Sequence record: SRR31156797_8471
Length of the DNA: 43,700 nucleotides
Strand: one strand, 5' to 3'
The first letter of the stretch is position 1. Each line of letters opens with the position of its first letter. The notes below the pieces were generated by a model that made no database searches, was not told where the DNA came from, and was given only the letters and a program-made list of their open reading frames with translations. Made by a program: the position numbers and the translations under genes. Positions 28,185 to 43,307 of this stretch are shown piece by piece.

Positions 28185-29687
28185 ATGTCGACCAGCGAAC
28201 AAGATGTAGTGCTGAATGCCACAGGAATATGCAAATATTTCCCCGGTGTAAAAGCGCTAGAAAATGTCGATTTCTGCCTGAAGAAAGGTGAAATCATGGC
28301 GCTTCTCGGTGAAAACGGCGCAGGGAAATCAACACTGGTTAAAGCCTTAACGGGTGTTTATCAACGCGATGGCGGGGATATCTACCTAGAAGGTCAACCA
28401 ATCTCCCCACAAAATACCGCGCACGCGCAAGATCTAGGAATAGGTACGGTTTATCAGGAAGTAAACCTATTACCGAACATGTCTGTGATGGATAACCTCT
28501 TCATTGGCAATGAACCCAAAAAATGGGGATTTGTAGACAGAAAACTCATGGCAGAGAAAGCCAGAGATATTGTGCTCGGCTACGGCTTAGATATCGATGT
28601 CACAGAGCCTCTAAATCACTTTTCTGTCGCTATTCAGCAAGTGATTGCTATCGCCAGAGCAATATCCCTTTCCGCTAAAATTCTTATTCTCGACGAGCCA
28701 ACAGCCAGCTTAGATGGTAACGAAGTCAAAATGCTGTTTGGCATCATGAATAACCTCAAACAGAAAGGCGTGAGCTTAGTTTTTATCACCCACTTCCTCG
28801 ATCAGGTATATGAAGTGAGTGACCGCATTACCGTTTTGCGTAATGGACAACTGGTCGGCACCCGCGAAACCAGAGAGTTACCACAAATCGAACTGGTAAA
28901 AATGATGCTCGGTCGTGAGCTGGAAGATTCAGCTTTAAAACGTGCTGGTAAAACCCAAAAACATAACGAGCCAATGGTTGAGTTCGAGAACTATGGCAAA
29001 AAAGGCACCATTGACCCCTTTGATCTTGAAGTTCACGCTGGTGAAATCGTTGGCTTAGCGGGTTTATTAGGCTCTGGGCGTACTGAAACCGCTCAGGTTA
29101 TCTTTGGTATTGAGCCAAGCGATTCAGGTAGTTGTTCTCTCAAAGGTAAACCAATTCAGGTTCGCTCAGCTCGTCAGGCTTCACACCTCGGTTTCGGTTA
29201 CTGTCCGGAAGACCGTAAAACGGATGGCATCATAGGCGCAGCGTCAGTCAGAGAGAACATTATCCTTGCTCTTCAAGCACAACGAGGATGGTTCAGGCCT
29301 CTTTCAAGAAAAGAACAGGAAGCGGTATCTCAACGCTATGTTGAACAGCTCGCGATTAAAACGCCAAGCATAGAACAACCGATTGAGTTCTTATCTGGCG
29401 GTAATCAGCAAAAAGTATTGCTTGCCCGCTGGCTACTGACCAAACCGAAATTCCTGATACTTGATGAACCGACTCGAGGTATCGACGTTGGGGCTCACGC
29501 AGAGATCATTCGTTTAATCGAAAGCTTATGTGCAAACGGATTAGCGCTACTGGTTATTTCTTCCGAACTGGAAGAGCTGGTGGGTTATGCAGACCGCGTG
29601 ATTGTCCTGCGAGATCGAAAATCCGTTGCTGAAATTCCAACGGAAGAACTCTCTGTGCCTGCCATCATGCAAGCCATCGCGATGTGA
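28185..29687 (+). CDS. ytfR: Sugar ABC transporter ATP-binding protein
   Basis: Tandem ABC domains GENGAGKST, FITHFLDQVY, GLLGSGRTE, LSGGNQQK; start at MSTSEQ behind GGAG. Confidence 0.9.
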   Translation: MSTSEQDVVLNATGICKYFPGVKALENVDFCLKKGEIMALLGENGAGKSTLVKALTGVYQRDGGDIYLEGQPISPQNTAHAQDLGIGTVYQEVNLLPNMSVMDNLFIGNEPKKWGFVDRKLMAEKARDIVLGYGLDIDVTEPLNHFSVAIQQVIAIARAISLSAKILILDEPTASLDGNEVKMLFGIMNNLKQKGVSLVFITHFLDQVYEVSDRITVLRNGQLVGTRETRELPQIELVKMMLGRELEDSALKRAGKTQKHNEPMVEFENYGKKGTIDPFDLEVHAGEIVGLAGLLGSGRTETAQVIFGIEPSDSGSCSLKGKPIQVRSARQASHLGFGYCPEDRKTDGIIGAASVRENIILALQAQRGWFRPLSRKEQEAVSQRYVEQLAIKTPSIEQPIEFLSGGNQQKVLLARWLLTKPKFLILDEPTRGIDVGAHAEIIRLIESLCANGLALLVISSELEELVGYADRVIVLRDRKSVAEIPTEELSVPAIMQAIAM

Positions 29688-29694
29688 GGTGACT

Positions 29695-30723
29695 ATGAAT
29701 ACGCTCAATCCACTTTCCTCAGTGAAGAAAGACACCATGAACAATCCTCATCAGAGGAAGTTTTCGTTGCCTAAGGGGACACCGCAGTTTGCAGCTTTGA
29801 TTTTACTGTTCTTAGTCAACAGTATGATTGCGGATAACTTTTTCTCTATTCACATTCAGGATGACCGCCTATTCGGCAGTGTCATCGATATTTTTAATCG
29901 TGGTGCGCCAGTTGCCCTGCTGACGATTGGTATGACTTTGGTGATTGCCACTGGTGGTATCGACCTTTCTGTCGGTGCTGTCATGGCCATTAGTGGTGCT
30001 GTCCTGGCCAGTATGGCTGAGCAAGGCTACGCCCCAGCCACCATTTTGCTTTGTGCAGTATTATCAGGTGTCGCATGTGGACTCTGGAACGGATTCCTTG
30101 TCGCCATCTGTAAAATACAGCCCATCGTTGCCACGCTTATTTTAATGGTCGCAGGCCGTGGTGTGGCTCAGTTAATTACCGAAGGGCAAATCATCACCTT
30201 CAATAACGATACGCTGTCCTGGTTTGGTAGTGGCACATTGTTCTATTTCCCTACCCCAATCCTTATTCTGGTTTGTGCGCTAATCATTGTTTGGGCACTG
30301 ACTAAGAAAACCGCATTGGGGCTCTTTATTGAATCTGTCGGTATTAATATCAAAGCCGCCAAAAACGCCGGGATTAATACCCCTGCTATCGTGATGTCAG
30401 TGTATGTCATTAGCGGTGTGATGGCTGCTCTTGCGGGGATTATCATCGCGGCAGACATAAAAGGTGCAGATGCGAATAACGCTGGTCTTTGGCTGGAAAT
30501 GGATGCCATTTTAGCGGTGGTGATCGGTGGCACGTCTCTGATGGGTGGCCGCTTTAACCTGATTCTGGCGCTAGTGGGTGCTTTCATCATTCAGAGCATT
30601 AACACGGGTATTCTGCTTTCAGGTTACCAACCACAGTGGAACCACATCGTGAAATCTCTGGTGGTTTTGACTGTCCTTATCCTGCAATCACCCGCTGTGA
30701 TTCAACTACTGAAGAGGAAATAA
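29695..30723 (+). CDS. ytfT: Sugar ABC transporter permease
   Basis: GGIDLSVGAV, IQPIVATLILMVAGRG, ADANNAGLWLEMDAI; start at 29695 behind GAGG. Confidence 0.9.
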   Translation: MNTLNPLSSVKKDTMNNPHQRKFSLPKGTPQFAALILLFLVNSMIADNFFSIHIQDDRLFGSVIDIFNRGAPVALLTIGMTLVIATGGIDLSVGAVMAISGAVLASMAEQGYAPATILLCAVLSGVACGLWNGFLVAICKIQPIVATLILMVAGRGVAQLITEGQIITFNNDTLSWFGSGTLFYFPTPILILVCALIIVWALTKKTALGLFIESVGINIKAAKNAGINTPAIVMSVYVISGVMAALAGIIIAADIKGADANNAGLWLEMDAILAVVIGGTSLMGGRFNLILALVGAFIIQSINTGILLSGYQPQWNHIVKSLVVLTVLILQSPAVIQLLKRK

Positions 30724-30727
30724 CAGT

Positions 30728-31732
30728 ATGCTTAAACGTAACCTTCCTCTATTCATCACCATCATCGTCTTCTTAGTCGGTTATGCGTTTTGCATGGTAG
30801 AGTTTCCAGCGTTCCTGACAACCCGAGTTATCTGTAACATTCTGACAGATAATGCGTTTTTAGGTATTCTCGCCGTAGGGATGACCTTCGTTATACTCTC
30901 GGGAGGTATCGATTTATCCGTAGGTTCTGTAGTAGCGTTCACCGGTATTTTCTTAGCGACCATTATCGGTGAATGGGGTGTTCATCCATTAACGGCGATT
31001 ATCATGGTGTTAATCATGGGTTCGTTGTTTGGTGGGCTAATGGGTTGGATTATCGATACCCTGAAAATCCCAGCTTTCATCGTTACTCTGGCTGGTATGT
31101 TCTTTCTGCGCGGTGTGAGCTTTTTAATCTCCGAGCAGTCCATCCCAATTGAGCATCCGTTATACCGCGAGATGTCCAGATTCTCCTGGCATATCGTTGG
31201 TGGCGGTCGTTTGAGTCTGTTGGCTGTCATCATGCTGTTCATTGTGGTGGTGGGTATGTTGGTCGCGCACCGTACCCGCTTTGGTAACAATGTCTACGCC
31301 ATCGGCGGTAACGCAACTTCAGCTGGCTTGATGGGGGTTCCGGTAAAACGCACCACCATTGGTATCTACATGCTTTCAACCTTCCTAGCAACGTGCGCTG
31401 GCGTGGTGTTCTCTATCTACACCTCTGCTGGTTACCCGCTTGCTGCAGTGGGTGTAGAGCTGGATGCTATCGCGGCTGTGGTTATCGGCGGTACGCTACT
31501 TTCCGGTGGTGTGGGAACTGTGTTTGGTTCGCTGTTTGGGGTACTGATTCAGGGCTTAATTCAAACCTACATTACCTTTGATGGCACATTGAGTTCATGG
31601 TGGACCAAGATTATCGTCGGTATCTTATTGTTCAGCTTTATCGCTCTACAACGCTTGTTGATTGTGATGAGTGAACGACGCAAGGTGGTGAATACCAGCA
31701 GAATAGGTTCACTGGCAACCAATAAAACTTAG
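30728..31732 (+). CDS. yjfF: Sugar ABC transporter permease
   Basis: MLKRNLPL, LTDNAFLGI, GGIDLSVGSV, FDGTLSSWWTKI. Confidence 0.9.
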   Translation: MLKRNLPLFITIIVFLVGYAFCMVEFPAFLTTRVICNILTDNAFLGILAVGMTFVILSGGIDLSVGSVVAFTGIFLATIIGEWGVHPLTAIIMVLIMGSLFGGLMGWIIDTLKIPAFIVTLAGMFFLRGVSFLISEQSIPIEHPLYREMSRFSWHIVGGGRLSLLAVIMLFIVVVGMLVAHRTRFGNNVYAIGGNATSAGLMGVPVKRTTIGIYMLSTFLATCAGVVFSIYTSAGYPLAAVGVELDAIAAVVIGGTLLSGGVGTVFGSLFGVLIQGLIQTYITFDGTLSSWWTKIIVGILLFSFIALQRLLIVMSERRKVVNTSRIGSLATNKT

Positions 31733-31752
31733 CCCTTAACCTATTGATAAAC

Positions 31753-31779
31753 AAAAGCCAGTCCTACGACTGGCTTTTT
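31753..31779. terminator. Bidirectional terminator between yjfF and cti
   Basis: AAAAGCCAGTC-CTAC-GACTGGCTTTT. Confidence 0.85.
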
Positions 31780-31796
31780 ATTTTGAACACGCATGA

Positions 31797-31890
31797 AAAT
31801 GGACAGGCTTCCACAAACCGCTCAAGACTTCCGTGTTCGCTTAAACTAGGGCATCCCTGCCCTAGTATGTTTGTTCCAGTCTATCCATTT
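31797..31890. repeat. Nested inverted-repeat element (REP/MITE-like or structured RNA)
   Basis: Outer stem AAATGGACAGGCT/AGTCTATCCATTT, ACAAAC/GTTTGT, inner perfect hairpin ACTAGGGCA-TCCC-TGCCCTAGT (31845-31866). Confidence 0.5.
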
Positions 31891-31916
31891 CCTCAGCTAG
31901 CATCAGTGGGTTTATC

Positions 31917-34274
31917 TTATCGATTCTCAAATCGGTTGTAGTCGAGTAAACCAAACTCGATTGGCTGGTCCTGCTTGTACCACTGATGAACTTTATCGCT
32001 GAATGACCAGAAATCCGGAGAACTACGGCGAACACCAAATCTATCCAGCAATTGAACATAACTCTCTTCACCATCAAGGGTTTTCAACCGTTCCACCAAC
32101 TCAGGTATCTCTGTTTCTCTTAGCGATAGATAAGCCGCTGGGTAACTCCCTAGCACACCTCTAACCAAGGTTAAGGTGTCATTTTCAGGCACTCGGTTAT
32201 CATCTTCATCAAACAAACTGTAAATGTTACTGTGAGCATTGTTGTGGATCAGCGTAAACAGTTGCGGTTGCTGAGATTTTGATTCAATCATCAACATCAT
32301 AAGCTGTGGAATCGGCAGGATCTGCTCACCTTTGATGTAGTTGATGCTATTCAACGCGTACTCATGTTCAGCAGTAAAACCCGTGTCTACGATGTCGTAG
32401 CGTGGACTTAAAACAGGGCTCACTCTGTCCTTCAGTTTCGCCATTAACTCAGATTTCGGGTTATCCGTTACATACTGAACGTTTGTTGGTTCATCAAATG
32501 GTTTCACATTACGCTGCAAGAACTCAGTAAAGTAAGCGGTTTGGTCTGCATACCAACTGGAGAACTCTTCATGGCGCATATCGCGAGGCAGTAGAGAAAT
32601 AAAGTTACTTTCCCCTTCCATCCGCAAAAAGTCCATAAACATCCGTGTCACTAACTGATGACCAAAATTCCCGTATACATCAAAGCCAGCCACTAACAGA
32701 TAATGAACCCGTTCAAGCAATGAGTAGTCGAATACCCAAGCCGTTTTTGGCTCTCGCCCCACTAGTCCTTGCGCGACAGAAGCACTATCAAAATGTCGGA
32801 AAACGGTTAAAGCCGCATTCGGGTTTTCGCCATCGCCAGACCAGATTAGGTCAGTGTTCATGTAGCGGCCGTCTTTAAACTGTTTATTGGCAAATTCCGA
32901 TTTTGCTTCAAGGTAACGAGCCTGCTGCTTAGCATAACTCACCCAGGTGGTGATTGGACTAATGGTATCCTCACGCTCCGCAGGCAACTTTAAGTTGTCC
33001 GCTTGAGAACGATAAAACTCAGTAGCTTCTGGGATATCCGCTTTGTCTGGGTCTAAGAAGAACACCCAAAAATGATCATTAATCACGTTCAGCGCCAGTT
33101 GTCCTCGGCAAACTGGGCCTTTGATAAAGCCCATAATGGTGTTCTGAGCATTATCAAGCAGGAAGCGATAGCGAGCGTTAATCGGCAGATCAATAAACGC
33201 CGTCATTGGGTTCGCGGCTACAGAAGGTTCGTAACCAGGAAGCTGGGACACGGTATAATCAGCATCGATAAACCACTCTTTCCAGCTTCTCATACGCTTT
33301 TTGTTTAACGCATAAGGCATATGAGTTTTATCTACGGTTGTGCCCTGTTCAGCAATCAAGCGGTAATAAACTCTATCAACCTGTGGGTCATCATAAGGGC
33401 GGCGGGTAGCAATACGCTTAACAGGTTCGCCCGGTGCAGTAGATGAGCGCACCAGAGTAAAGAAACGAGGTGATGCTTCTTTTAAATCGGAGAAATAGAT
33501 GTGAGACAAAAACAGATGCTCATAGATATAGCGAGCAGTTAACTGGTTTTTCAACCCATCGGCATTTAATAAGGTTTCGTAATTGTTGACTAATGTCTGC
33601 TGAGATTTCGTCAGAGGCACATGGTCATTCATGATGGCGCCGTTCTCTAACCAAGTCATCAACTTGTTGTACTCGGTTTTATTTAAGTTAGGCATACCGA
33701 AAGGCATACCCCAATCCGGATAGTCCTGCTGATATGCCTCATGTTCTTCTAACGTTGGACACTGCTGCTCTCGGTAGATAGAAAAATCGAAACCTTCCAG
33801 CTGATCTTGCTGCTGCTGTGGGTGCAGCTCTTTTTGCTTAAGTAGACGAGCAACCAGCCCCGCCTCTAGGTTCGCTCTGGTGGTTTGATCGCGCTCATTT
33901 AGAACGGGGTGAAAACCAAAGTCTCGCCACTGTTGTGTCGTCTCTGCATCTTCAAACAAACGAGTGGGTGTCGCTGCACTTAAACGAGAGCCTTCATAGA
34001 CCATCTCTTTGCTAGCACCACGATCAATCCCTTCCACCGACGAAAGCTTCAACTGACAAGGCGCGTCATAACAGGCGTGACAAACAACACAACGATTATC
34101 AATAATCGGCTTAACTTCATTCATAAAGTATTCAGCTTGTGGCGACTCTAGCGCGACCTGACGTTCTCTAACTTCCGCAGAGCCAAACAGTTGATCGTAA
34201 TTAAGGCCTGCATAGGTAGCACAACCAGAAACCACGACGACCAGTGAAATGAAAAAGAGTTTACGTAAATTCAT
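31917..34274 (-). CDS. cti: Fatty acid cis/trans isomerase
   Basis: Lipoprotein signal (VSGC), heme motif RCVVCHACYDAPCQLKL, RYIYEHLFL, FIKGPVCRGQLALNVI, TVFRHFDSASV, terminal NRFENR. Confidence 0.93.
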   Translation of the reverse strand: MNLRKLFFISLVVVVSGCATYAGLNYDQLFGSAEVRERQVALESPQAEYFMNEVKPIIDNRCVVCHACYDAPCQLKLSSVEGIDRGASKEMVYEGSRLSAATPTRLFEDAETTQQWRDFGFHPVLNERDQTTRANLEAGLVARLLKQKELHPQQQQDQLEGFDFSIYREQQCPTLEEHEAYQQDYPDWGMPFGMPNLNKTEYNKLMTWLENGAIMNDHVPLTKSQQTLVNNYETLLNADGLKNQLTARYIYEHLFLSHIYFSDLKEASPRFFTLVRSSTAPGEPVKRIATRRPYDDPQVDRVYYRLIAEQGTTVDKTHMPYALNKKRMRSWKEWFIDADYTVSQLPGYEPSVAANPMTAFIDLPINARYRFLLDNAQNTIMGFIKGPVCRGQLALNVINDHFWVFFLDPDKADIPEATEFYRSQADNLKLPAEREDTISPITTWVSYAKQQARYLEAKSEFANKQFKDGRYMNTDLIWSGDGENPNAALTVFRHFDSASVAQGLVGREPKTAWVFDYSLLERVHYLLVAGFDVYGNFGHQLVTRMFMDFLRMEGESNFISLLPRDMRHEEFSSWYADQTAYFTEFLQRNVKPFDEPTNVQYVTDNPKSELMAKLKDRVSPVLSPRYDIVDTGFTAEHEYALNSINYIKGEQILPIPQLMMLMIESKSQQPQLFTLIHNNAHSNIYSLFDEDDNRVPENDTLTLVRGVLGSYPAAYLSLRETEIPELVERLKTLDGEESYVQLLDRFGVRRSSPDFWSFSDKVHQWYKQDQPIEFGLLDYNRFENR

Positions 34275-34594
34275 ATAGTTATTGTTTTGAGTTAACCAAC
34301 TTTAATTAAAGTAGAGACTACTATAATTTCAACTTTCTTAAGATAACACATTGTGAAATTTATCTTTGACAACCAAGCATATGCCATTAGGCGAGCAAGG
34401 CTGTAGGTATTTCTTACACAATTAATTTTTTATCTAACCAACAAACCAAGAAATTTGTTTAAAATGCCGTGAATTGAAATATACCGCCTACGTTAAGGCT
34501 CATCATTCTCAAGTTACTATAATCTAATCATGGTAAAGCAGAATTAACAGCAATAGCCCAAAAACTCATAGGGTGGCACCAGCCAAGTATCACA

Positions 34595-34960
34595 ATGACA
34601 AATCACATCGAGCAAAGAAAATATTTTCGACTGAGCTACAAATCGAAACAAGTTATGCCAACACTTCGAGTGAATAACCGAGAATTTAGCGTGAGTGAAA
34701 TATCGGAACAAGGCATGCGTGTGATTAGCCGAGATCCAACCCTATTTAGCATCGGTGATATTGTAAAGGGTGAAATCTTACTGAACTCGCTTGAGACCAA
34801 TATTCACATTGATGGAAAAGTGTTGAGAGTCGTGGGCAATGAAGTGATTTGTCACCTACGAGAAGGACTATCTTTTAAAGATATGATTGCCGAGCAAAGA
34901 TACTTACGTAAACACTTTCCGAACGTATTACCTAAGGGGACTATTGAGTCCAAAAGTTAG
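34595..34960 (+). CDS. PilZ domain protein
   Basis: QRKYFR (RxxxR) and EISEQG ([D/N/E]xSxxG) motifs. Confidence 0.82.
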   Translation: MTNHIEQRKYFRLSYKSKQVMPTLRVNNREFSVSEISEQGMRVISRDPTLFSIGDIVKGEILLNSLETNIHIDGKVLRVVGNEVICHLREGLSFKDMIAEQRYLRKHFPNVLPKGTIESKS

Positions 34961-34999
34961 CAGCGATATGAATAAAAAAGAGCGCTAAGTACGAGAGTG

Positions 35000-35040
35000 G
35001 TTCACTTCAGAGTAGCAATGTCTCTAATTCTGAAGTGAAC
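35000..35040. repeat. Perfect 12-bp inverted repeat just outside the Tn7-like end
   Basis: GTTCACTTCAGA (35000-35011) / TCTGAAGTGAAC (35029-35040), 17-bp spacer. Confidence 0.8.
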
Positions 35041-35054
35041 GATGAGCAATTAAT

Positions 35055-35131
35055 TGTGCAGCGACAATAAAGTTTGTATTTAATTGTATTTTTAAGACAA
35101 GTAGATTCTGTACTTAACCTAAAGCCCGAAC
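35055..35131 (+). repeat. Tn7-like transposon end (terminal TGT plus TnsB-binding sites)
   Basis: TGTGCAGCGACAATAAAGTT resembles the Tn7 terminus TGTGGGCGGACAATAAAGTC; a second site GACAAGTAGATTCTGTACTT at 35096-35115 and a weaker third at 35116-35131. Confidence 0.72.
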
Positions 35132-35145
35132 CTATTGCTTCCCCT

Positions 35146-35204
35146 AAATTTACACGAAACGTGAATTTACATGAATCATGTAAATATTCTTTCCGTGTAA
35201 ATTT
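35146..35204. repeat. 59-bp nested palindrome
   Basis: AAATTTACACG/CGTGTAAATTT outer arms and ATTTACATG-AAT-CATGTAAAT inner arms. Confidence 0.8.
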
Positions 35205-35287
35205 GACCACTATCCCTCATTTATCCATGAAATCCATCTATCTTTCTAGAAAATCACACTTCCCTGTGGATCCATAAGAGGTCTCTG

Positions 35288-35494
35288 ATGAACGAAAATC
35301 TCGACGAGTTGCTCCCTATACTAAAAGAATTCAACCTAGAAAATGTATCCTTTAAGGTGGTCGACCCATCACTATTACCAGAAAAAACGCTAAAGTCTTT
35401 CAATATCTTTATGTCAGGTTCAACTGTCCCACACAGGACTTACGTATACAGTTATGATTATGCAAGATTTTGTATGCTCGTTCGTAGGGGGTGA
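35288..35494 (+). CDS. Small hypothetical protein (68 aa)
   Basis: ATG with AGAGG RBS, globular-looking sequence; no family recognised with confidence. Confidence 0.6.
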   Translation: MNENLDELLPILKEFNLENVSFKVVDPSLLPEKTLKSFNIFMSGSTVPHRTYVYSYDYARFCMLVRRG

Positions 35495-35811
35495 TATACT
35501 TATATTGTGTCAATTATTTATTTACTATCAATTAGTTATATATATAACAGTAATCCAACATAAATCGATATAGCTAAGTGAATCGTAACGGTTGAGCCTG
35601 ACTCAACCTATAAATCTAGTGTTCAGCAATAACCTTCAGAATTAAAATTAGGTTTCATTTGGCAAAAGACCTAACCCAGACCAAATGCCATATGACTATA
35701 ATGTGTGCCATATCATAAACATATCGCTTGAATATAGAGTAAGCTACCACTGATGCATATATATACAAATTGGAATCTATTCACCTAACGTCATCAGGGA
35801 AGGAGCCTTTA

Positions 35812-36882
35812 ATGGCCGAAACATTTAGCAATCTAAATTTCAAACGAATCATTCTCCATAACGTATACCCACCAAATGATGAAGGACTGGTAACACCATT
35901 TTGCAGTACTGTTTTAACGCAACTAGATCATAACGCTTCACAGAAGCTCGAAGAACGTCTTACATCAGTTTTAGGGTCTAGTTCACATAGCTTACAGATG
36001 AACATAGCCCAAGACGGTAAAGCAAGTTGCTTTCACTTTTCCAGTCAACTACTGGACGCATCAGACAGTGACTTCATAAAAGATTCGTGTGAACTTGCAA
36101 ATTTGCATACTTCCGCCCATACAAATAAATCTTGGCCCGGTGGCACACTGGTAATCATCGACGGAACATCTGGTGCAGCTAACCGGAGATGCTTATTCAT
36201 AATAAAAGCCGAGCAGCAAGCCGGATTTATTGAAAGCCAAGAAGAAAACACTATCAAACTGTCTTACATAGAAAATCTGATCCTTACTCCCCAAGCGAGG
36301 CTTTACAAAGTGGGGGTTTTTGTCGAACAAGATGACAAATCCTTAGCTGATGAGATTCGCGATAAAGACGAATTTGAGGCCTATGTTTTCGATAGCAACA
36401 TTAAGGCAAAAGATGATCGTAACGCGGCTAAATACTTCTATTCCGGTTTTCTAGGCCTTCAAGTGCCTGAAAATGCAGAACAAAGAACTCGTGACTTTTT
36501 CGAATATTCTAGAGAGTACATAAATGGTTCTCGGCTACCTGATGAGAAAAAAATAGATGTTCAACAAGCTCTACACACCTACCTAAAAACTGATCAAAGT
36601 AATACAATCCAGGCCTCAGAATTCGCAGAAAAATACCTGCCGGAGGAGTACCGGGATGACTATAATGATTATGTCGTTAAAAAAGGTTTTCCTGCTACTG
36701 CAGTAGTAAAAGACACCTCTCTGATAAAGAGGAAGTTAGCCACTCGTAAGATGAACTTTTCTAGTGATGTAAAGCTAACTGCACCAGCAGAGAAGTTCTC
36801 AGAGTTAGTGAAGATTATTGAAGCAACTGATGACCATACAACAATCCAGGTCAAAGGTAAGCTTTCAGAACAAGACAAATGA
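35812..36882 (+). CDS. NA37/YejK (NdpA)-like nucleoid-associated protein
   Basis: About 356 aa; N-terminal FKRIILHNV, central GGTLVII...LFIIKAE, LYKVGVF, AKYFYSGFLG, TRDFF pattern typical of NA37-superfamily proteins; start at the ATG at 35812 behind AAGGAG. Confidence 0.7.
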   Translation: MAETFSNLNFKRIILHNVYPPNDEGLVTPFCSTVLTQLDHNASQKLEERLTSVLGSSSHSLQMNIAQDGKASCFHFSSQLLDASDSDFIKDSCELANLHTSAHTNKSWPGGTLVIIDGTSGAANRRCLFIIKAEQQAGFIESQEENTIKLSYIENLILTPQARLYKVGVFVEQDDKSLADEIRDKDEFEAYVFDSNIKAKDDRNAAKYFYSGFLGLQVPENAEQRTRDFFEYSREYINGSRLPDEKKIDVQQALHTYLKTDQSNTIQASEFAEKYLPEEYRDDYNDYVVKKGFPATAVVKDTSLIKRKLATRKMNFSSDVKLTAPAEKFSELVKIIEATDDHTTIQVKGKLSEQDK

Positions 36883-37898
36883 CCCAGGAAGAATTTGCTG
36901 CACGTTATGAACAAGAAAAGCCTATGTATGAAGCATGGGCTGATTTTGTGTTGTCTGAGATTAAGTCCGGCTTACTTAATTTGCTAGGTAACAGTAAACC
37001 TAAGTACGATGAATACGTAAAAATGACTCCATCCAGCAGAGTCAAAACAACAGAGTCTCTTCTTACAAAGGCTTTTATTCGAAAAAAAGATAAATACCAA
37101 GATCCTTACTCACAAATAACGGATAAAGCTGGGATTCGTTTTGTCGTTCTCTTAACACAACAATTGGATCAACTTTGTTCTATCATCGAAAACCACAAAT
37201 CTTGGACATATTCCAAAGACAAAGAATTTGATGAGTGGCGAACATCAGATCCTCGAATGTTCGATTATCAATCTGTACACTACATCGTTCGCGCCCAAAT
37301 GACCTTCGTCCATAAAGGCGTAACAATCGATGAAGATACACCTTGTGAAGTTCAGTTTAGAACATTGCTACAACATGCCTACGCAGAATTAGCACATGAC
37401 ACCATATACAAAGGAGATGTGGATGCATCTCCAACAGTCAAACGCTGCTTTGCTAAAAGCATGGCCTTAATGGAAACCACAGATGAACTATTGTGCGGAG
37501 CAAAAGCCGAATTAGAAAAATGTGCAGGCATTATTACACAATGGCGAGAAGTGGCACTAAGTCAAGCCAGCAAGCTTTTACCAGCTTCGCATTGGATTGA
37601 TGATACCAAAAACATTGAATTTTACCTGTCAGAGTTCCAACCATTGCTCAGTACGTTAAGTATTGATGACTTGCTTGAATTTTTAGGTGACCATGAATAT
37701 TCATTTTTGGCATCACGAATTGAATCCCACCAAAATAATAAAGCTTTTGTTGAATTTAAACTTCCTGTGATTCTTGTCTGTTATTTTTTAGCCAAAAAGA
37801 AAAAATCAGTTATAAAAAAATATTGGCCAACAGACTTTCATGTTTTACAAATTATTTTTAACGATCTCGGTTTAGCACCTAACTGGGCTACACACTAA
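36879..37898 (+). CDS. RelA/SpoT-type nucleotidyltransferase (small alarmone synthetase-like) with C-terminal extension
   Basis: Synthetase motifs SRVKTTESL, ITDKAGIRFV, YQSVHYIV, EVQFRTLLQHAYAELAHDTIYK; no HD hydrolase domain; ATGA overlap with the upstream gene. Confidence 0.88.
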   Translation: MTQEEFAARYEQEKPMYEAWADFVLSEIKSGLLNLLGNSKPKYDEYVKMTPSSRVKTTESLLTKAFIRKKDKYQDPYSQITDKAGIRFVVLLTQQLDQLCSIIENHKSWTYSKDKEFDEWRTSDPRMFDYQSVHYIVRAQMTFVHKGVTIDEDTPCEVQFRTLLQHAYAELAHDTIYKGDVDASPTVKRCFAKSMALMETTDELLCGAKAELEKCAGIITQWREVALSQASKLLPASHWIDDTKNIEFYLSEFQPLLSTLSIDDLLEFLGDHEYSFLASRIESHQNNKAFVEFKLPVILVCYFLAKKKKSVIKKYWPTDFHVLQIIFNDLGLAPNWATH

Positions 37899-37961
37899 AA
37901 TCCAGAGATTACGCACCATTTCCTAGAACAACCAATTTAGAGTTATCGATTATATTTAGCG

Positions 37962-39431
37962 CTAAACAGGCAAGATATTTTCTTTTATCAGTTGAGAAGC
38001 ACCTAACCCTGAAGCCTTTGTGACATATTGCATATTGGCTCCAGCTAGAATTGCAGATACCGCCATTATATCTCGGATTGAGTGCAAAGTTTTCCCTTCG
38101 GCTTGAACAGTATCAAATACTTTAAAAGCTTCTCTGAACATCTTGTTGAGCACCTTAGGATCAATCGGCTTTAGACCAGACTTAGAGACTAACAAAGGAC
38201 TATTTGAATTAAATTTTCCATTAAGCCTACTCTCGATATACCTTTTCATTTTCTTTTCAACATTCCTTGGTAACAGAGCCGTTCTATAGGAGCAACCAAC
38301 CCTCTCTCTTTTCAATCGAATAACTAATAAACCTGATATAGGCTCACGACTAATGTCATCAAATATTGGAAAAGTCTCTCCTATAGATGTTAATTCACTA
38401 TGTGTACTAAACGTCGATTTCATGAGCGTGAACAGCCACTCGACAGTATCAGCCTCATAGCTAGATGGTTCAAAAAAATGGCCAATATGGGATAGTAAAT
38501 CAGAATAAGTCGATATTTGACGATCACTAATATGGACGGGCAAACTCGAATTTTGAAATATTGACACAAGAATACTTCTTACATCAACTTCATCGACCGG
38601 CCTGAAAGCAGTACCATCTTCAATATCTGTACAATACTCTCTATAAGGACATGAAAGGCAGTCGTGACGTGCTTTATAAAAATAAAAACCATCTCTTACA
38701 CAAGCTTCAACGCTGGCATATAGAAACGTTTTTAATACCTCTTTTTCATTATCAGGGAAACTATTCAGGTATTGATAAAACAAACTGATCGTATTGGAGA
38801 AAGCCCCCTCATAACCATTAAAATCAAAAAAACCAAAGCTACGAGTACTTTTAAAATACTCAACCAATACACATGGAGCAACTACACTAGATCTGTTTTC
38901 GTATAAGTTTTTTGTTGAAATCGCACTCTCTGGATAAGAGAGGAAATCTCCGTCTAATACTTTCATAAATGTATCGGACAGACTTAATCCTAATTTATCT
39001 GACGTATCAAAAATGCTTAACAACTTGTGTCCGTGGACTAGACACCGATGATTAAACATCCAATCTTTCCTTAGCCACGAATGCCCATAGTAATAGATCT
39101 GTTCAGAGATGCAATCCGGACAATAACGCATTGATTTATCATTTTTCTCATCAGGAAATACAACCTCATTACTCCCAAGAGATTGTGAAGTAATGAGTTG
39201 ACTGTTCGGAGCACTTTTGGCTCTTTTACTAGCTTCTTCAAAGAGCAAACTGTGACTTTCGCCAACTAATTCATATAACTTATCGGATGCTTTTTTAGGA
39301 TTAACAAAATTTCCATTTTTCAGGAGGATATACTTGTGAAAAAACGGTGCAGTTAAAATACTATTAAAACGAGCAAGCCTATATATGTAACTGTACAGAG
39401 ACTCACTTGCCTTCAGATGTGGAACAAACAT
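37962..39431 (-). CDS. TniQ-family protein fused to a degenerate tyrosine-recombinase catalytic domain
   Basis: TniQ N-terminus (P...ESLYSYIYRLARFN) and Zn finger (RYCPDC...W....RCLVHGHKL); C-terminal integrase-like segment (RTALLP, SPLLVSKSG, TLHSIRD, AGANMQYV). Confidence 0.78.
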   Translation of the reverse strand: MFVPHLKASESLYSYIYRLARFNSILTAPFFHKYILLKNGNFVNPKKASDKLYELVGESHSLLFEEASKRAKSAPNSQLITSQSLGSNEVVFPDEKNDKSMRYCPDCISEQIYYYGHSWLRKDWMFNHRCLVHGHKLLSIFDTSDKLGLSLSDTFMKVLDGDFLSYPESAISTKNLYENRSSVVAPCVLVEYFKSTRSFGFFDFNGYEGAFSNTISLFYQYLNSFPDNEKEVLKTFLYASVEACVRDGFYFYKARHDCLSCPYREYCTDIEDGTAFRPVDEVDVRSILVSIFQNSSLPVHISDRQISTYSDLLSHIGHFFEPSSYEADTVEWLFTLMKSTFSTHSELTSIGETFPIFDDISREPISGLLVIRLKRERVGCSYRTALLPRNVEKKMKRYIESRLNGKFNSNSPLLVSKSGLKPIDPKVLNKMFREAFKVFDTVQAEGKTLHSIRDIMAVSAILAGANMQYVTKASGLGASQLIKENILPV

Positions 39432-39543
39432 ATCTATAACCTAAATTAGTAAACGCGTTGATCTTGCCCTAGTTGAAGGTGAACAGAAAGTCTGGGATTA
39501 CTCAATGAATGTAATTAAAGAGTACTTGTAAGGGAAATCAGAT

Positions 39544-39768
39544 ATGCCCGTCGACTTTCTAACAACTGACCAAAAGCAAAGTTACGGGCAATTCAGCGGA
39601 GACCCAAATGATGTTCAGCTTGCACGTTACTTTCACTTAGATGAAACCGACCTGGAGTTTATAGCTCTGCGTCGCGGTGATCACAATCGGTTTGGTGTCG
39701 CCCTGCAATTAGGCTGTGTTCGCTTCCTGGGTACTGTCTTAACTGATTTAAGTCAGGTTCCAGTGAAT
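39544..39768 (+). pseudogene. tnpA: Tn3-family transposase N-terminal fragment
   Basis: MPVDFLTT...[10 protein letters not shown]...[21 protein letters not shown] matches the Tn3 TnpA N-terminus; similarity ends near residue 75 and the ORF stops at 39831. Confidence 0.9.
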
Positions 39769-39886
39769 GCCCCAAACCTTTCTAGTTACATTTTCTTTTC
39801 AACTGTTGGTAAACTGGTTTTGCTATACTAAAACTTACTTGGGAGCAAATATAACTGATAGTCATAATATCTAAAGGGGGATTATT

Positions 39887-40054
39887 TTGACTCTAGATAA
39901 AAACAGAAGAGATAGCGAAGATATAGATGTTGAAGGTGCTATCAAGCGTATGCGATCTCATTCAAGAAATACCAGATCATCATTTGGTAAACATCTTAAA
40001 GTTAAAGCGCCCAAGTCTGCATATGGACGCTTTGCTGGGCCAACCAAAACATAA
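39887..40054 (+). CDS. Small basic hypothetical protein (55 aa, below the ORF-track cutoff)
   Basis: AAAGGGGG RBS 6 nt before TTG; frame reads MTLDKNRRDSEDIDVEGAIKRMRSHSRNTRSSFGKHLKVKAPKSAYGRFAGPTKT*. Confidence 0.45.
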   Translation: MTLDKNRRDSEDIDVEGAIKRMRSHSRNTRSSFGKHLKVKAPKSAYGRFAGPTKT

Positions 40055-40600
40055 AAGAGGTATTTTTAACCATGTAATCCAGAGTTTGCTTCTTTAATTC
40101 AGTGATGTCATTGATTATCTGAGATGAAGAAAATGGCAGCGATAACATTGATTTGCTGCCAAACCTGAATCAAAAATGCCCCTTTCCAATTTAACGTAAA
40201 TACTCAGTGATGAGTTACTCCACGGACTTTTCGATACTTTTTCTAATATCGCAACATCAAAACAATGGTACCTTCTGAGTCGCTGGCTATTCTGATAGAT
40301 ATTTACTTAGAATTATGGGCCACGCGTTTCCCTCCACGATTAAAAACACTTTTACGTCGACGAAATTTAACCATTAAAGATTAATAGAACCTGGATAACC
40401 GGCCAATGAGGTCACAATTCTCAGAATCTACTCATTTCGTTTGATGGGGTATGAATGATAATTAATAACGTTATACGAGCTATAATGTAAGTAAATATTG
40501 CAAATGCAGAGTCGTATGCAATGAGTTTGTTGAAGTGTTTGAGGCGGGCTAGGTCTTTCGGCGGTAGTTATCCGTTAGCTGTCACTGCTCAAACCGGGAG

Positions 40601-42942
40601 ATGTGTATGAGTTCAACAAATACCAAATCTGGTGCCTCCTCTTGTCATGAAGGAGGATCAGCAACTTCACATCATGCACATGAGACGCACAGTCACTATC
40701 AAGCTGATAACTCAGCTCTACAGGAACTCATCATTGAGGGTGCGGGTTGCGCAAGCTGTGTAGGGAAAATCGAATCAGCGTTAAAGGCAGTGCCCGGAGT
40801 GGATGGCGCTGAGATGAATTTTTCCCAGCGTACGGTAAGTGTGACTGGAACAGCTCAGACAGATACTTTGGTTAAAGCGGTAGAAAAAGCAGGCTACAAG
40901 GCAAAAGTTGCTGTTGCTGAGAGTGAAGATGATGCACTGAACGAAAAAGAGCAGGAAGACTGGGCTTACTACAAACGACTAATGCGTGAAATGACCATCG
41001 CATTGTCACTGGGTGTGCCCTTGATGGTTTACAGTATTATCGTTGGCGAAATGACGGTAAGCACAACAGGCGAGCGTCTTGCCTGGCTGGTTGTTGGGCT
41101 ACTGACCCTTGGAGTCATGGTGTTTTCGGGCAAACACTTTTTCGTAGGAGCCTGGCAGTCCTTTAAAAATCATTCGGCCAATATGGATACCCTGATTGCA
41201 TTGGGTACCGGGACCGCATGGGTTTATTCTATGGTCGTTGTGTTCGTACCTTATGCTATCCCGGAAATGGCTCGCCACGTCTATTTCGAAGCCACGGCCA
41301 TGATTATTGGTTTAATCGATCTGGGGCTGGCACTCGAACTCAAAGCCCGTGGACGCACATCGGAGGCCATTAAGCGTCTAATAGGTCTGCAAGCCAAAAC
41401 TGCCAGAGTTATTCGCGATAATAAAGAGTTGGATGTTGCCATTGAAAAGGTGCTGATGGACGATGTTGTGCGTGTCCGTCCTGGTGAAAAAATTCCTGTT
41501 GATGGTGACGTTATCGAAGGGCATACCGCCATTGATGAGTCGATGTTAACAGGTGAACCTATGCCCGTTGAAAAAAAGTAGGTGATTCTGTCGCGGCGGG
41601 TACCATCAATAAAAGTGGTTCCATTTTGTTTAAAGCAACTCGTGTCGGTAAGGACACAGCATTGGCGCAGATCATTAACATGGTTAAACGGGCGCAGAAT
41701 TCGAAGCCACCAATAGGCCGTTTAGTTGATGTAATATCCGCGTATTTTGTTCCTGTGGTGATGATAATCGCAGTAAGTAGTGCACTGGTTTGGCTCAACT
41801 TTGGTCCGGATCCGGCTGTGGCATTTTCCATCGTATCGGCAACGACAGTACTGATTATCGCCTGCCCCTGTGCGTTAGGTCTTGCAACGCCTATGTCGGT
41901 CATGGTGGGGGTGGGTAAAGCGGCAGAAGTTGGTGTGCTGATTCGCAATGGCGAAGCGTTGCAAACCGCATCGAAGATTTCTGCAATGATTCTTGATAAG
42001 ACCGGCACCATCACCCTGGGCTCACCTAAAGTCACTGATGTATTGGTTGCGGGTGAGCAGAATGAAGACACCATCCTCAAACTGGCGGCAACATTAGAAT
42101 CCGGCTCCGAACATCCATTGGCACTGGCGATTGTAGAATCTGCCCGGGAGAAAAGTATCGAAATGGGGAAGGTTTCCAATTTCAAAGCTATCGCCGGGCA
42201 CGGTGTGCAAGCAGAAGTGAATGGCAAAACACTACTGTTCGGTAATGAAAAATTGATGCGTGAGCATAACATCGAACTCGGTGATTTTATTGAAAAGGCA
42301 CAAGCCCTGGCCATCGAAGCAAAAACCCCGATGTACTTCGCTGTGGGCAACCAACTTTCCTCGATTATTGCGGTGGCTGATCCTATTAAGGAGGATTCAA
42401 TCGCTGCCATCAAACGCTTACAACATAACGGCATCCGCGTCGTCATGTTAACCGGCGACAATCGAGCCACTGCAAAAGCCGTCGCCGATAAAGCGGGCAT
42501 CAAAGAGTTCTTTGCTGAAGTACTGCCGGAAGACAAATCCAAAAAAGTTCAGGAACTACAGATGGAAGGTGAAGTGGTCGGAATGACCGGTGACGGAATC
42601 AATGATGCACCGGCTCTGGCAATTGCTAATGTGGGCTTTGCCATCGGCACGGGTACGGATGTTGCGATTGAGAGTGCTGATATTACCTTAATGCGTGGAT
42701 CACTGCATGGGCTTGCCGATGCCATTGCAGTGAGCAAAGCCACAATGCGAAATATCAAACAGAATCTGTTCGGTGCTTTTATTTACAACGCTGCGGGAGT
42801 GCCTTTTGCAGCGGGTGTGCTGTATCCATTTTTTGGTTTGCTGCTAAGCCCTGTTATAGCCGGTGCTGCGATGGCATTTTCGTCATTAACTGTTGTTACG
42901 AACGCTAACCGCCTGCGGTTGTTTAAATCGCAGGAACATTAA
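40601..42942 (+). pseudogene. copA: Copper-translocating P1B-type ATPase, split by a one-base frameshift (40601-41581 + about 41578-42942)
   Basis: GCASC HMA domain, [32 protein letters not shown] and MAFSS Cu(I) motifs; the frame breaks at GAA AAA AAG TAG (41570-41581), and one extra A restores PVEKKVGDSV. Confidence 0.9.
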
Positions 42943-42953
42943 GGGGAGCAGGT

Positions 42954-43307
42954 ATGTGGTTTATTAATATTGCTGGCATGGTTCTGATCGCGCTCATTAT
43001 TTGGTGGTTTTGGCTTTACAAGCCCAAAGAAGCGGAGATGGGAGACAATGATCTGGTGATTACAGTTGAAAACGGCACCTATTCGCCTTCGCGAATCAAG
43101 TTGCCCGCAGGCGAACCTGTCGAACTTAAATTCCTGCGCAAAGATCAGTCCCCTTGCTCAGAAACTCTGCTCATTCCCGAATTACAAATCAGTGATACCT
43201 TGCCACTCAACAAACTGAAATCCGTCCAGTTGCCTGCACTGAAGTCAGGTGAATACGCCTTTCATTGCCAGATGCAAATGTATCGTGGCCAGATCATAGT
43301 TAGTTAG
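42954..43307 (+). CDS. Membrane-anchored cupredoxin-domain protein (CupA-like)
   Basis: N-terminal TM, YSPSRI, SPCSE, GEYAFHCQMQMYRG copper motif; directly after copA. Confidence 0.88.
   Translation: MWFINIAGMVLIALIIWWFWLYKPKEAEMGDNDLVITVENGTYSPSRIKLPAGEPVELKFLRKDQSPCSETLLIPELQISDTLPLNKLKSVQLPALKSGEYAFHCQMQMYRGQIIVS

Follow-up and report, generated by a model that had tools for sequence, protein, structure and literature searches.

Within sequence record SRR31156797_8471, of which a stretch of 43,700 nucleotides was analysed (hereafter the window), two coupled genes encode a YejK-like nucleoid-associated protein (NAP) and a RelA/SpoT-type alarmone synthetase. We consider it highly probable, at roughly 85%, that this pair is a Vibrio copy of type I PANGU and a working abortive-infection system. 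PANGU was described in an April 2026 preprint (bioRxiv 10.64898/2026.04.06.716658), and the pair is hence already published and named, and no longer new. A previous sequence-only reading of the same DNA had put it forward as a candidate defence or toxin-antitoxin system of which no experimental characterisation was known. The latter statement has been overtaken by the preprint, and the match to an already named system, type I PANGU, removes the novelty. The evidence from the window itself comprises gene structure, protein families, orthology, domain architecture, catalytic residues, gene linkage and mobile context. The biochemical and phage-related steps that we infer for the Vibrio copy, and the mechanism they make up, are taken by homology from the two systems characterised in the accessible part of the preprint, those of Ferrimonas futtsuensis and Pseudomonas aeruginosa.

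As described in that part of the preprint, PANGU systems are two-gene operons with a YejK-like NAP. In type I systems the NAP gene, pag1A, is followed by pag1B, which encodes a toxic small alarmone synthetase (toxSAS) of the GRel subfamily. Defence lowered T4 or Bas34 by 3-4 logs and required both genes, and in the absence of phage Pag1A, Pag1B, or both together were non-toxic. Pag1B alone was inactive in vitro and needed Pag1A for its activity. Only with both proteins present was pppGpp, and also ppGpp and pGpp, made from ATP and GTP, GDP or GMP, and the assays reported there gave no labelling of tRNA. In a cryo-electron microscopy (cryo-EM) complex, two Pag1A subunits are seen with the C-terminal domain of Pag1B. 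A tetramer-to-heterotrimer switch, in which Pag1A dismantles the inactive Pag1B tetramer, was shown with the P. aeruginosa system (PANGU-Pa). T4 escape mutations map to denA (endonuclease II). Pag1A binds 400-bp and 1-kb DNA, not 200-bp DNA, and DNA-binding-dead Pag1A together with Pag1B is toxic without phage. The preprint further states that Pag1A/Pag1B pairs co-evolve (bioRxiv 10.64898/2026.04.06.716658). Separately, the accessible part of the DefensePredictor work includes a validated system containing a YejK domain.

These experiments sort the functional proposals that had been made from the letters alone. The idea of anti-phage cargo in which a DNA-binding, nucleoid-associated-like protein licenses the synthetase during infection is supported by the preprint data on the F. 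futtsuensis ortholog. Three other proposals find no support in the same data, as far as they are accessible. The ortholog proteins were non-toxic without phage, singly or together, which speaks against a toxin-antitoxin pair; the ortholog NAP activates the enzyme and does not restrain it; and no label passed to tRNA, with ATP and GTP, GDP or GMP the only substrates used, which argues against tRNA pyrophosphorylation or ppApp synthesis.

The window was tied to this work through a locus of F. futtsuensis DSM 18154 (L050). We took L050 to be the characterised locus because all 12 residues named in the accessible part of the preprint sit at their exact numbers, namely seven of seven in Pag1B (Y129, R258, E272, R279, R306, H314 and E337) and five of five in Pag1A (K6, E47, K52, E278 and D282). 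The window proteins are orthologs of this pair, with full-length identities of 62% for Pag1A (354 amino acids, aa; expect value, E, 8e-177) and 55% for Pag1B (337 aa; E 2e-136). The C-terminal domain of the window Pag1B aligns to F. futtsuensis residues 235-336 without large gaps, homology to the F. futtsuensis protein extending through residue 337.

Both genes lie on the plus strand. The first, pag1A (open reading frame ORF1; 35812-36882), encodes a YejK/NA37-family protein of 356 aa (~40.3 kDa), a putative DNA-bound sensor and activator. Its longest frame opens at a TTG at 35770, and the 356 aa are counted from ATG 35812. We regard this ATG as the likely start because a Shine-Dalgarno-like GGAAGGAG, read from the sequence at 35798-35805 on the plus strand, lies 6 bases upstream, and because the protein then aligns with residue 1 of its relatives. 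The second, pag1B (ORF2; 36879-37898), encodes a GRel-type small alarmone synthetase (toxSAS) of 339 aa (~39.3 kDa), a putative pppGpp-making effector. The stop of pag1A and the start of pag1B share the letters ATGA at 36879-36882, a same-strand overlap of four bases that had been reported earlier and was confirmed. With the NAP gene first, the toxSAS gene second and less than 40 bp between them, the layout agrees with the PANGU operon rule. The description of the cargo as AT-rich also held, as G+C content is 0.355-0.407 across 35001-40000, against 0.45-0.49 on both sides (29001-34000 and 41001-43000).

The NA37 identity of the first protein was borne out by both sequence and fold. Residues 14-313 match Pfam NA37 (E 6.1e-14; 52.6 bits against a cut-off of 24.6). 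The AlphaFold2 (AF2) model of Pag1A, with a mean predicted local distance difference test (pLDDT) of 83.3, has a single significant fold match in the PDB, Escherichia coli YejK (9be2; E 2.5e-9, template modelling score, TM, ~0.5). Chains of KwaB from the Kiwa system (9mtn, 9nyu) came next and were set aside as not significant (E 0.15-0.3, TM 0.22-0.29); KwaB is likewise a DNA-sensing defence protein. A PDB sequence search found no solved relative of Pag1A, the copy searched being one without the PANGU cryo-EM structure. Of the DNA-contact residues named for PANGU, K200 and R203 are kept. On the NCBIfam YejK equivalog model Pag1A scores only 22.7 bits against a cut-off of 341, and on the YjbM-type GTP diphosphokinase equivalog Pag1B scores 30.3 bits against 320. 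Because both lie far below these housekeeping cut-offs, they are divergent paralogs. Further, the Vibrio genome that serves as a stand-in for the host (G086), which carries the locus at 99-100% identity, encodes a separate true YejK (E 2e-101) and two long proteins of RelA/SpoT size from the RelA/SpoT homologue (RSH) family. Pag1A is therefore an extra paralog. Three other carrier genomes each hold two NA37 genes.

Pag1B has the features of an alarmone synthetase without a hydrolase. Residues 53-180 match Pfam RelA_SpoT (E 2.8e-16), the motifs DKAGIR and EVQFRT are present in the translation, and a Pfam scan found no hydrolase or HD family in ORF2. The same scan found no hydrolase gene in the block 35052-39831. 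The corresponding statements of the sequence-only reading, on the synthetase motifs, the missing hydrolase domain and the lack of a separate alarmone hydrolase nearby, thus stand. Eleven positions are invariant in all 28 aligned sequences (R54, K56, K64, D82, G85, R87, S132, H134, E157, Q159 and R161), as is the catalytic G-loop tyrosine Y130, which corresponds to Y129 in F. futtsuensis.

The C-terminal extension of the synthetase, which had also been noted, spans residues ~181-339 and is resolved by the AF2 model (pLDDT 89.1) into separate parts. A catalytic domain runs to ~177, followed by a long helix at 185-233 and a helical domain at 243-329. These correspond to the toxSYNTH domain, the alpha-helical linker and the C-terminal docking ('DMK') domain that the accessible part of the preprint describes for PANGU Pag1B. 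In plus-strand coordinates, the catalytic domain (residues 1-180), delimited by model secondary structure, the Pfam span and the invariant motifs, occupies 36879-37418. The linker (residues 185-233), a single long helix in the model, occupies 37431-37577. The C-terminal helical domain (residues 236-339), a homologue of the 'DNA-mimicking' domain that docks on the Pag1A dimer, occupies 37584-37895. The best PDB fold matches of the Pag1B model are the (p)ppGpp synthetases SAS1/RelQ, SAS2 and RelP (E ~1e-7), with CapRel and FaRel2/ATfaRel2 structures at ranks 37-46. A sequence search of the same PDB copy returned housekeeping SAS enzymes only. A PADLOC candidate, PDC-S33, was rejected as a similarity of the catalytic domain only (36.4 bits, E 9.9e-10; residues 47-169 against model positions 64-175 of 349), and a literature search on PDC-S33 found no paper. 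From orthology to the protein named GRel in the accessible part of the preprint, we infer that Pag1B belongs to this subfamily.

The two genes are also linked well beyond the window. One genome per species was scanned; of the 182 relatives of ORF2 that this yielded, the best 80 were retained as loci. In 77 of these 80, the reading frame immediately upstream of the synthetase, on the same strand, is an NA37 one, and an NA37 gene or remnant lies directly upstream in all 78 loci that have upstream DNA, two of them broken. The two genes thus co-occur throughout these loci, drawn from the best 80 of 182. Two loci (L006 and L059) lack upstream DNA because they begin no more than ~120 bases ahead of the synthetase gene; contig ends cut L026, L028 and L058. 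In Bradyrhizobium japonicum (L078; 5741-5917) only an NA37 remnant matching residues 280-335 by tblastn sits beside an intact synthetase gene, and in a member of the Thermodesulfobacteriota (L014; 3281-5998) the NA37 gene is in two pieces ~1.6 kb apart, again beside an intact synthetase gene. The record titles of the loci name Gamma-, Beta- and Alphaproteobacteria, Desulfobacterota, Verrucomicrobiota, Firmicutes, Chloroflexi, Acidobacteria, Deinococcota, Spirochaetes and others. Across 28 loci, pairwise identities of Pag1A and Pag1B correlate (r 0.84), and none of 2000 permutations reached this value. Such a correlation fits inheritance as a unit, and shared host ancestry would give one too.

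By homology, the Vibrio pair would act as follows. Pag1A, the extra YejK-like paralog, would form a dimer that clamps long chromosomal DNA and would so be kept on the nucleoid, with Pag1B waiting in the cytoplasm as an inactive homotetramer. When phage nucleases degrade the host chromosome, Pag1A would be freed, and the tetramer would come apart as two of its subunits dock on the C-terminal helical domain of a single Pag1B. The resulting 2:1 complex would move pyrophosphate from ATP to GTP, GDP or GMP. The flood of (pp)pGpp, together with the drain on nucleoside triphosphates, would then stop transcription and translation and block phage multiplication, the outcome being abortive infection. 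The (p)ppGpp could presumably be degraded by the host SpoT.

Several observations weigh against this reading. The docking surface is only partly conserved: among the six salt bridges named, E47-R279 (E47-R280 in the window) is the sole one with both partners retained. F. futtsuensis K6 and K52 of Pag1A and R258, H314 and E337 of Pag1B are all replaced in the window. The Pag1B C-terminal domain, whose counterpart is called DNA-mimicking, has by sequence a net charge of -3 and an isoelectric point (pI) of 5.9, compared with -6 and 4.8 in F. futtsuensis, and it is neutral or basic in five of 28 relatives. A third DNA-contact residue of Pag1A, K204, is an asparagine in the window protein. PADLOC 2.0.0 returned no matching system, only the weak PDC-S33 match to the catalytic domain. 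A promoter scan found no sigma-70-like promoter on the plus strand upstream of pag1A, a result that is uninformative, with four sites in the region against 8.1 expected. Truncation of the carrier transposon means that the cassette could be decaying, though both reading frames are intact. Finally, a single preprint, still awaiting peer review, is the source of the mechanism.

The altered contacts can be read in another way. Pag1B retains two of its six named contact residues, E273 and R280, and has a conservative K for R at K307, with changes at T259, Y315 and T338; Pag1A retains three of its five, E47, E278 and D282, with changes at S6 and S52. Altogether five of the 11 named interface residues are replaced, with one conservative K for R in addition, and the K52-E337 pair is altered on both sides. 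These alignment columns are highly variable across the family, which fits the pair-wise co-evolution stated in the accessible part of the preprint, and the net charge of the C-terminal domain ranges from -7 to +7 among the 28 sequences. It is conceivable, though we think it doubtful, that the Vibrio copy is an orthogonal PANGU variant with a re-wired docking surface, carried on a compact 4.7-kb cassette (35054 to ~39740) that comprises the Tn7-like left end, pag1A, pag1B and tniQ. Were this so, the re-wired docking could prevent cross-talk with other PANGU pairs or with phage-encoded DNA mimics, and the response might suit another degree or kind of chromosome damage, such as that caused by vibriophage nucleases, than the T4-triggered system of F. 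futtsuensis. A complex prediction of two Pag1A chains with Pag1B residues 234-339 scored 0.00; alignments were not used and the fold of the partner was uncertain, and the result counts neither way.

The trigger itself invites a different explanation, in which the pair is a general stress or DNA-damage alarm that raises (p)ppGpp upon chromosome breakage or decondensation, as in genotoxic stress or transposition, with phage defence as a side effect. As far as the preprint is accessible, the trigger is indeed the loss of long DNA and no phage molecule, and DNA-binding-dead Pag1A with Pag1B is toxic without phage. SpoT in the host proxy G086 could, moreover, reverse a mild response. We nevertheless judge this explanation very unlikely. 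The 3-4 logs of protection and the phage escape mutants in denA reported in the same source point to defence. The distribution is accessory and horizontally moved, with a Pag1B homolog at E <= 1e-20 in only two of the 121 Vibrio species genomes searched. An intact relative of the carrier transposon, described below, holds an NB-ARC/TPR STAND NTPase as cargo.

Still less likely is a classical type II toxSAS toxin-antitoxin system, in which Pag1B would be a constitutively active toxin held in check by an NA37 antitoxin, and the two would stabilise the mobile element by addiction without any sensing of phage. FaRel, FaRel2, PhRel and CapRel are toxSAS toxins restrained by antitoxins, FaRel2/ATfaRel2 and CapRel are among the weaker fold matches of Pag1B, and the pair sits on a transposon remnant. 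However, in the accessible preprint data the 55-62% identical F. futtsuensis proteins are non-toxic singly or together, and Pag1A is required for Pag1B activity. The order of partner first and enzyme second, at ~340-356 aa each, is kept in 77 of 80 loci (best 80 of 182), and in place of a small antitoxin the partner has a full-size DNA-binding fold.

The PANGU pair lies just inside a Tn7-like end, as had been recognised, although the element proved to be a remnant. This left end (35052-35210, plus strand; context outside the defence system) was delimited by a motif search, junctions and an inverted repeat. It has a terminal TGT at ~35055 and the end-repeat motif GACAATAAAGTTTGTA at 35063-35078. 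These are followed by another related site (35097-35116) and by a 29-nucleotide inverted repeat (35146-35204) that is 83% complementary, with arms 1 nucleotide apart. Homology with G086 begins at 35052, where the left flank differs, and in a DNA contig of run X12 position 35054 abuts yet another flank, 29 of whose 30 letters equal L088 1547-1576 (compared by eye), L088 being a locus of another Vibrio genome, G099. Three independent junctions therefore fall at 35052-35055 and mark a real transposon end. A degenerate TnsB-type pattern gave one site in the window and one in L088, and the two candidate sites differ in spacing; we accordingly make no claim on the number of binding sites.

L088 also offers an intact element for comparison. 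A near-identical motif, AATAAAGTTTGTAC, occurs there four times against 0.02 expected, two copies on the plus strand at one end and two on the minus strand at the other, bracketing tnsABCD. The element (L088 1580-13780, ~12 kb) carries tnsA, tnsC (TniB/AAA), tnsD and a second, weak TniQ-like reading frame, and at the tnsB position a 721-aa reading frame without a Pfam match at E <= 0.001. Its cargo is a different defence-type gene, for the NB-ARC/TPR STAND NTPase (770 aa), and an IS110 transposase, and it carries no NA37/RSH pair. The window is 95% identical at 35143-35504 to the end region of this element (L088 ~1790-2149). This stretch includes the 29-nucleotide inverted repeat and a 68-aa reading frame (35288-35494, plus strand; no Pfam family) that belongs to the transposon end region and lies outside the defence pair. 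Together with the inverted repeat, it may be an end-proximal regulator of the transposon family.

On the other side of the pair, convergent with pag1B, lies a tniQ-family gene of 489 aa (37962-39431, minus strand; Pfam TniQ E 2.8e-11, PADLOC TniQ E 2.2e-12), the only transposition gene left of the Tn7-like element. Its TniQ domain covers residues 2-137, and its C-terminal residues 377-475 are weakly like the catalytic part of tyrosine recombinases (NCBIfam XerA E 1.3e-4; Pfam Phage_integrase E 0.1); if real, this combination is an unusual TniQ architecture. A close relationship to the TnsD of G099 was rejected, as a zinc-finger stretch alone aligns (E 0.002). Beyond tniQ is an N-terminal fragment of a Tn3-family transposase (DUF4158; 39544-39831, plus strand; Pfam DUF4158 E 1.5e-22, NCBIfam transpos_Tn3 E 8.3e-15) that covers only positions 2-55 of the 954 of transpos_Tn3. 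Searches for tnsA, tnsB, tnsC and a second end found none of them in the window or in the 20 kb rightward in G086. With those genes missing and only one end (35055-35118) and tniQ present, the carrier is a truncated Tn7-like remnant. The Tn3 fragment marks the end of the shared mobile block, at ~39740-39767. At 39729-39767 the contigs from runs X9 and X12 either end or depart from the window sequence, and from these limits we delineate a shared mobile block of ~35054-39740.

The least probable explanation of all is an inactive relic, brought in by a Tn7-like element before its loss of tnsABC and by now neither expressed nor functional. In its favour, tnsA/B/C are missing, the Tn3 fragment abuts tniQ and no promoter-like site was found upstream of pag1A on the plus strand. 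Against it, both reading frames are full length with every invariant catalytic residue present, G086 encodes the locus with 100% protein identity, and near-identical copies recur across runs.

Those copies of the 35500-38000 stretch, sharing 0.97-1.00 of sampled words, were found in 15 of the 21 listed runs, with the labels marine, seawater, aquatic, freshwater, wastewater and mollusc; runs X17-X19 have small word shares and are no evidence of habitat. Two runs come from RNA-based sampling. Run X9, an RNA-Seq library, gave a 2206-nucleotide contig over 35306-37511 and further contigs over tniQ, and run X16, a metatranscriptome, gave five contigs, 95-99% alike, within 35882-37766. Such libraries may contain DNA and the runs were chosen for holding the stretch, so these contigs do not show transcription, strand, level or a single transcript; the uncovered X9 parts, 34300-35143 and 39997-40600, carry no information.

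G086 matches the window at 99.4% across 35052-43300, with an identical Pag1B protein. The left flanks are unrelated, with a PilZ gene and a fatty-acid cis/trans isomerase in the window and sorbitol phosphotransferase system genes in G086, the junction at window 35052 corresponding to L087 19713. This difference suggests that DNA was rearranged, or inserted a second time, precisely where the element ends. Farther right, a copper/heavy-metal P-type ATPase with HMA, E1-E2_ATPase and Hydrolase domains occupies two plus-strand frames of the window (40601-41581 and 41626-42942). In the 99.4% identical G086 it is a single 780-aa reading frame (L081 7049-9391), and the split is either a frameshift or an assembly error.

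The Vibrio pair enlarges a defence family that entered the literature only months ago, and shows that PANGU can be carried at the cargo end of a Tn7-like transposon. The varying contact residues constitute a natural data set on the specificity of sensor-effector pairs. For annotation, a 'GTP pyrophosphokinase' beside an NA37 gene should be taken for an effector of phage defence and not for a housekeeping enzyme of the stringent response.

Among known systems, CapRel(SJ46) (7ztb) is likewise an anti-phage toxSAS with a C-terminal regulatory domain, and matches the fold of Pag1B at rank 37 (E 1.9e-5). In the accessible part of the preprint, CapRel is described as pyrophosphorylating tRNA, being auto-inhibited in cis and sensing a phage capsid protein (bioRxiv 10.64898/2026.04.06.716658), whereas PANGU Pag1B produces pppGpp and depends on a separate activator. 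For the catalytic domain of Pag1B, the nearest solved folds are RelQ/SAS1 and RelP/SAS2 (5dec, 5ded, 6fgk and 6ex0; TM to target 0.70-0.78; 16-21% identity). These enzymes make (p)ppGpp, yet they are housekeeping proteins without the long linker, the C-terminal docking domain or a NAP partner. E. coli YejK (9be2) has the same fold as Pag1A, and Pfam NA37 is common to both. It is, however, a housekeeping nucleoid-associated protein, whereas Pag1A is a divergent paralog, operon-linked to its effector, and carrier genomes keep a true YejK separate from Pag1A.

From P. aeruginosa, the species of PANGU-Pa, two full-length 334-aa relatives (P0064 and P0068) are 38% identical to the window Pag1B (E ~1e-70), a much more distant comparison than the one with the F. 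futtsuensis pair. The type I PANGU of F. futtsuensis differs from the window copy in the interface residues, the acidity of the C-terminal domain and K204, as set out above, and in its setting, the window copy being found in Vibrio at the end of a truncated Tn7-like element. The two have in common the same families in the same order, coupled genes, a three-part Pag1B, a shared catalytic tyrosine, and a common set of residues, E47, E278, D282, K200 and R203 in Pag1A and E273 and R280 in Pag1B.

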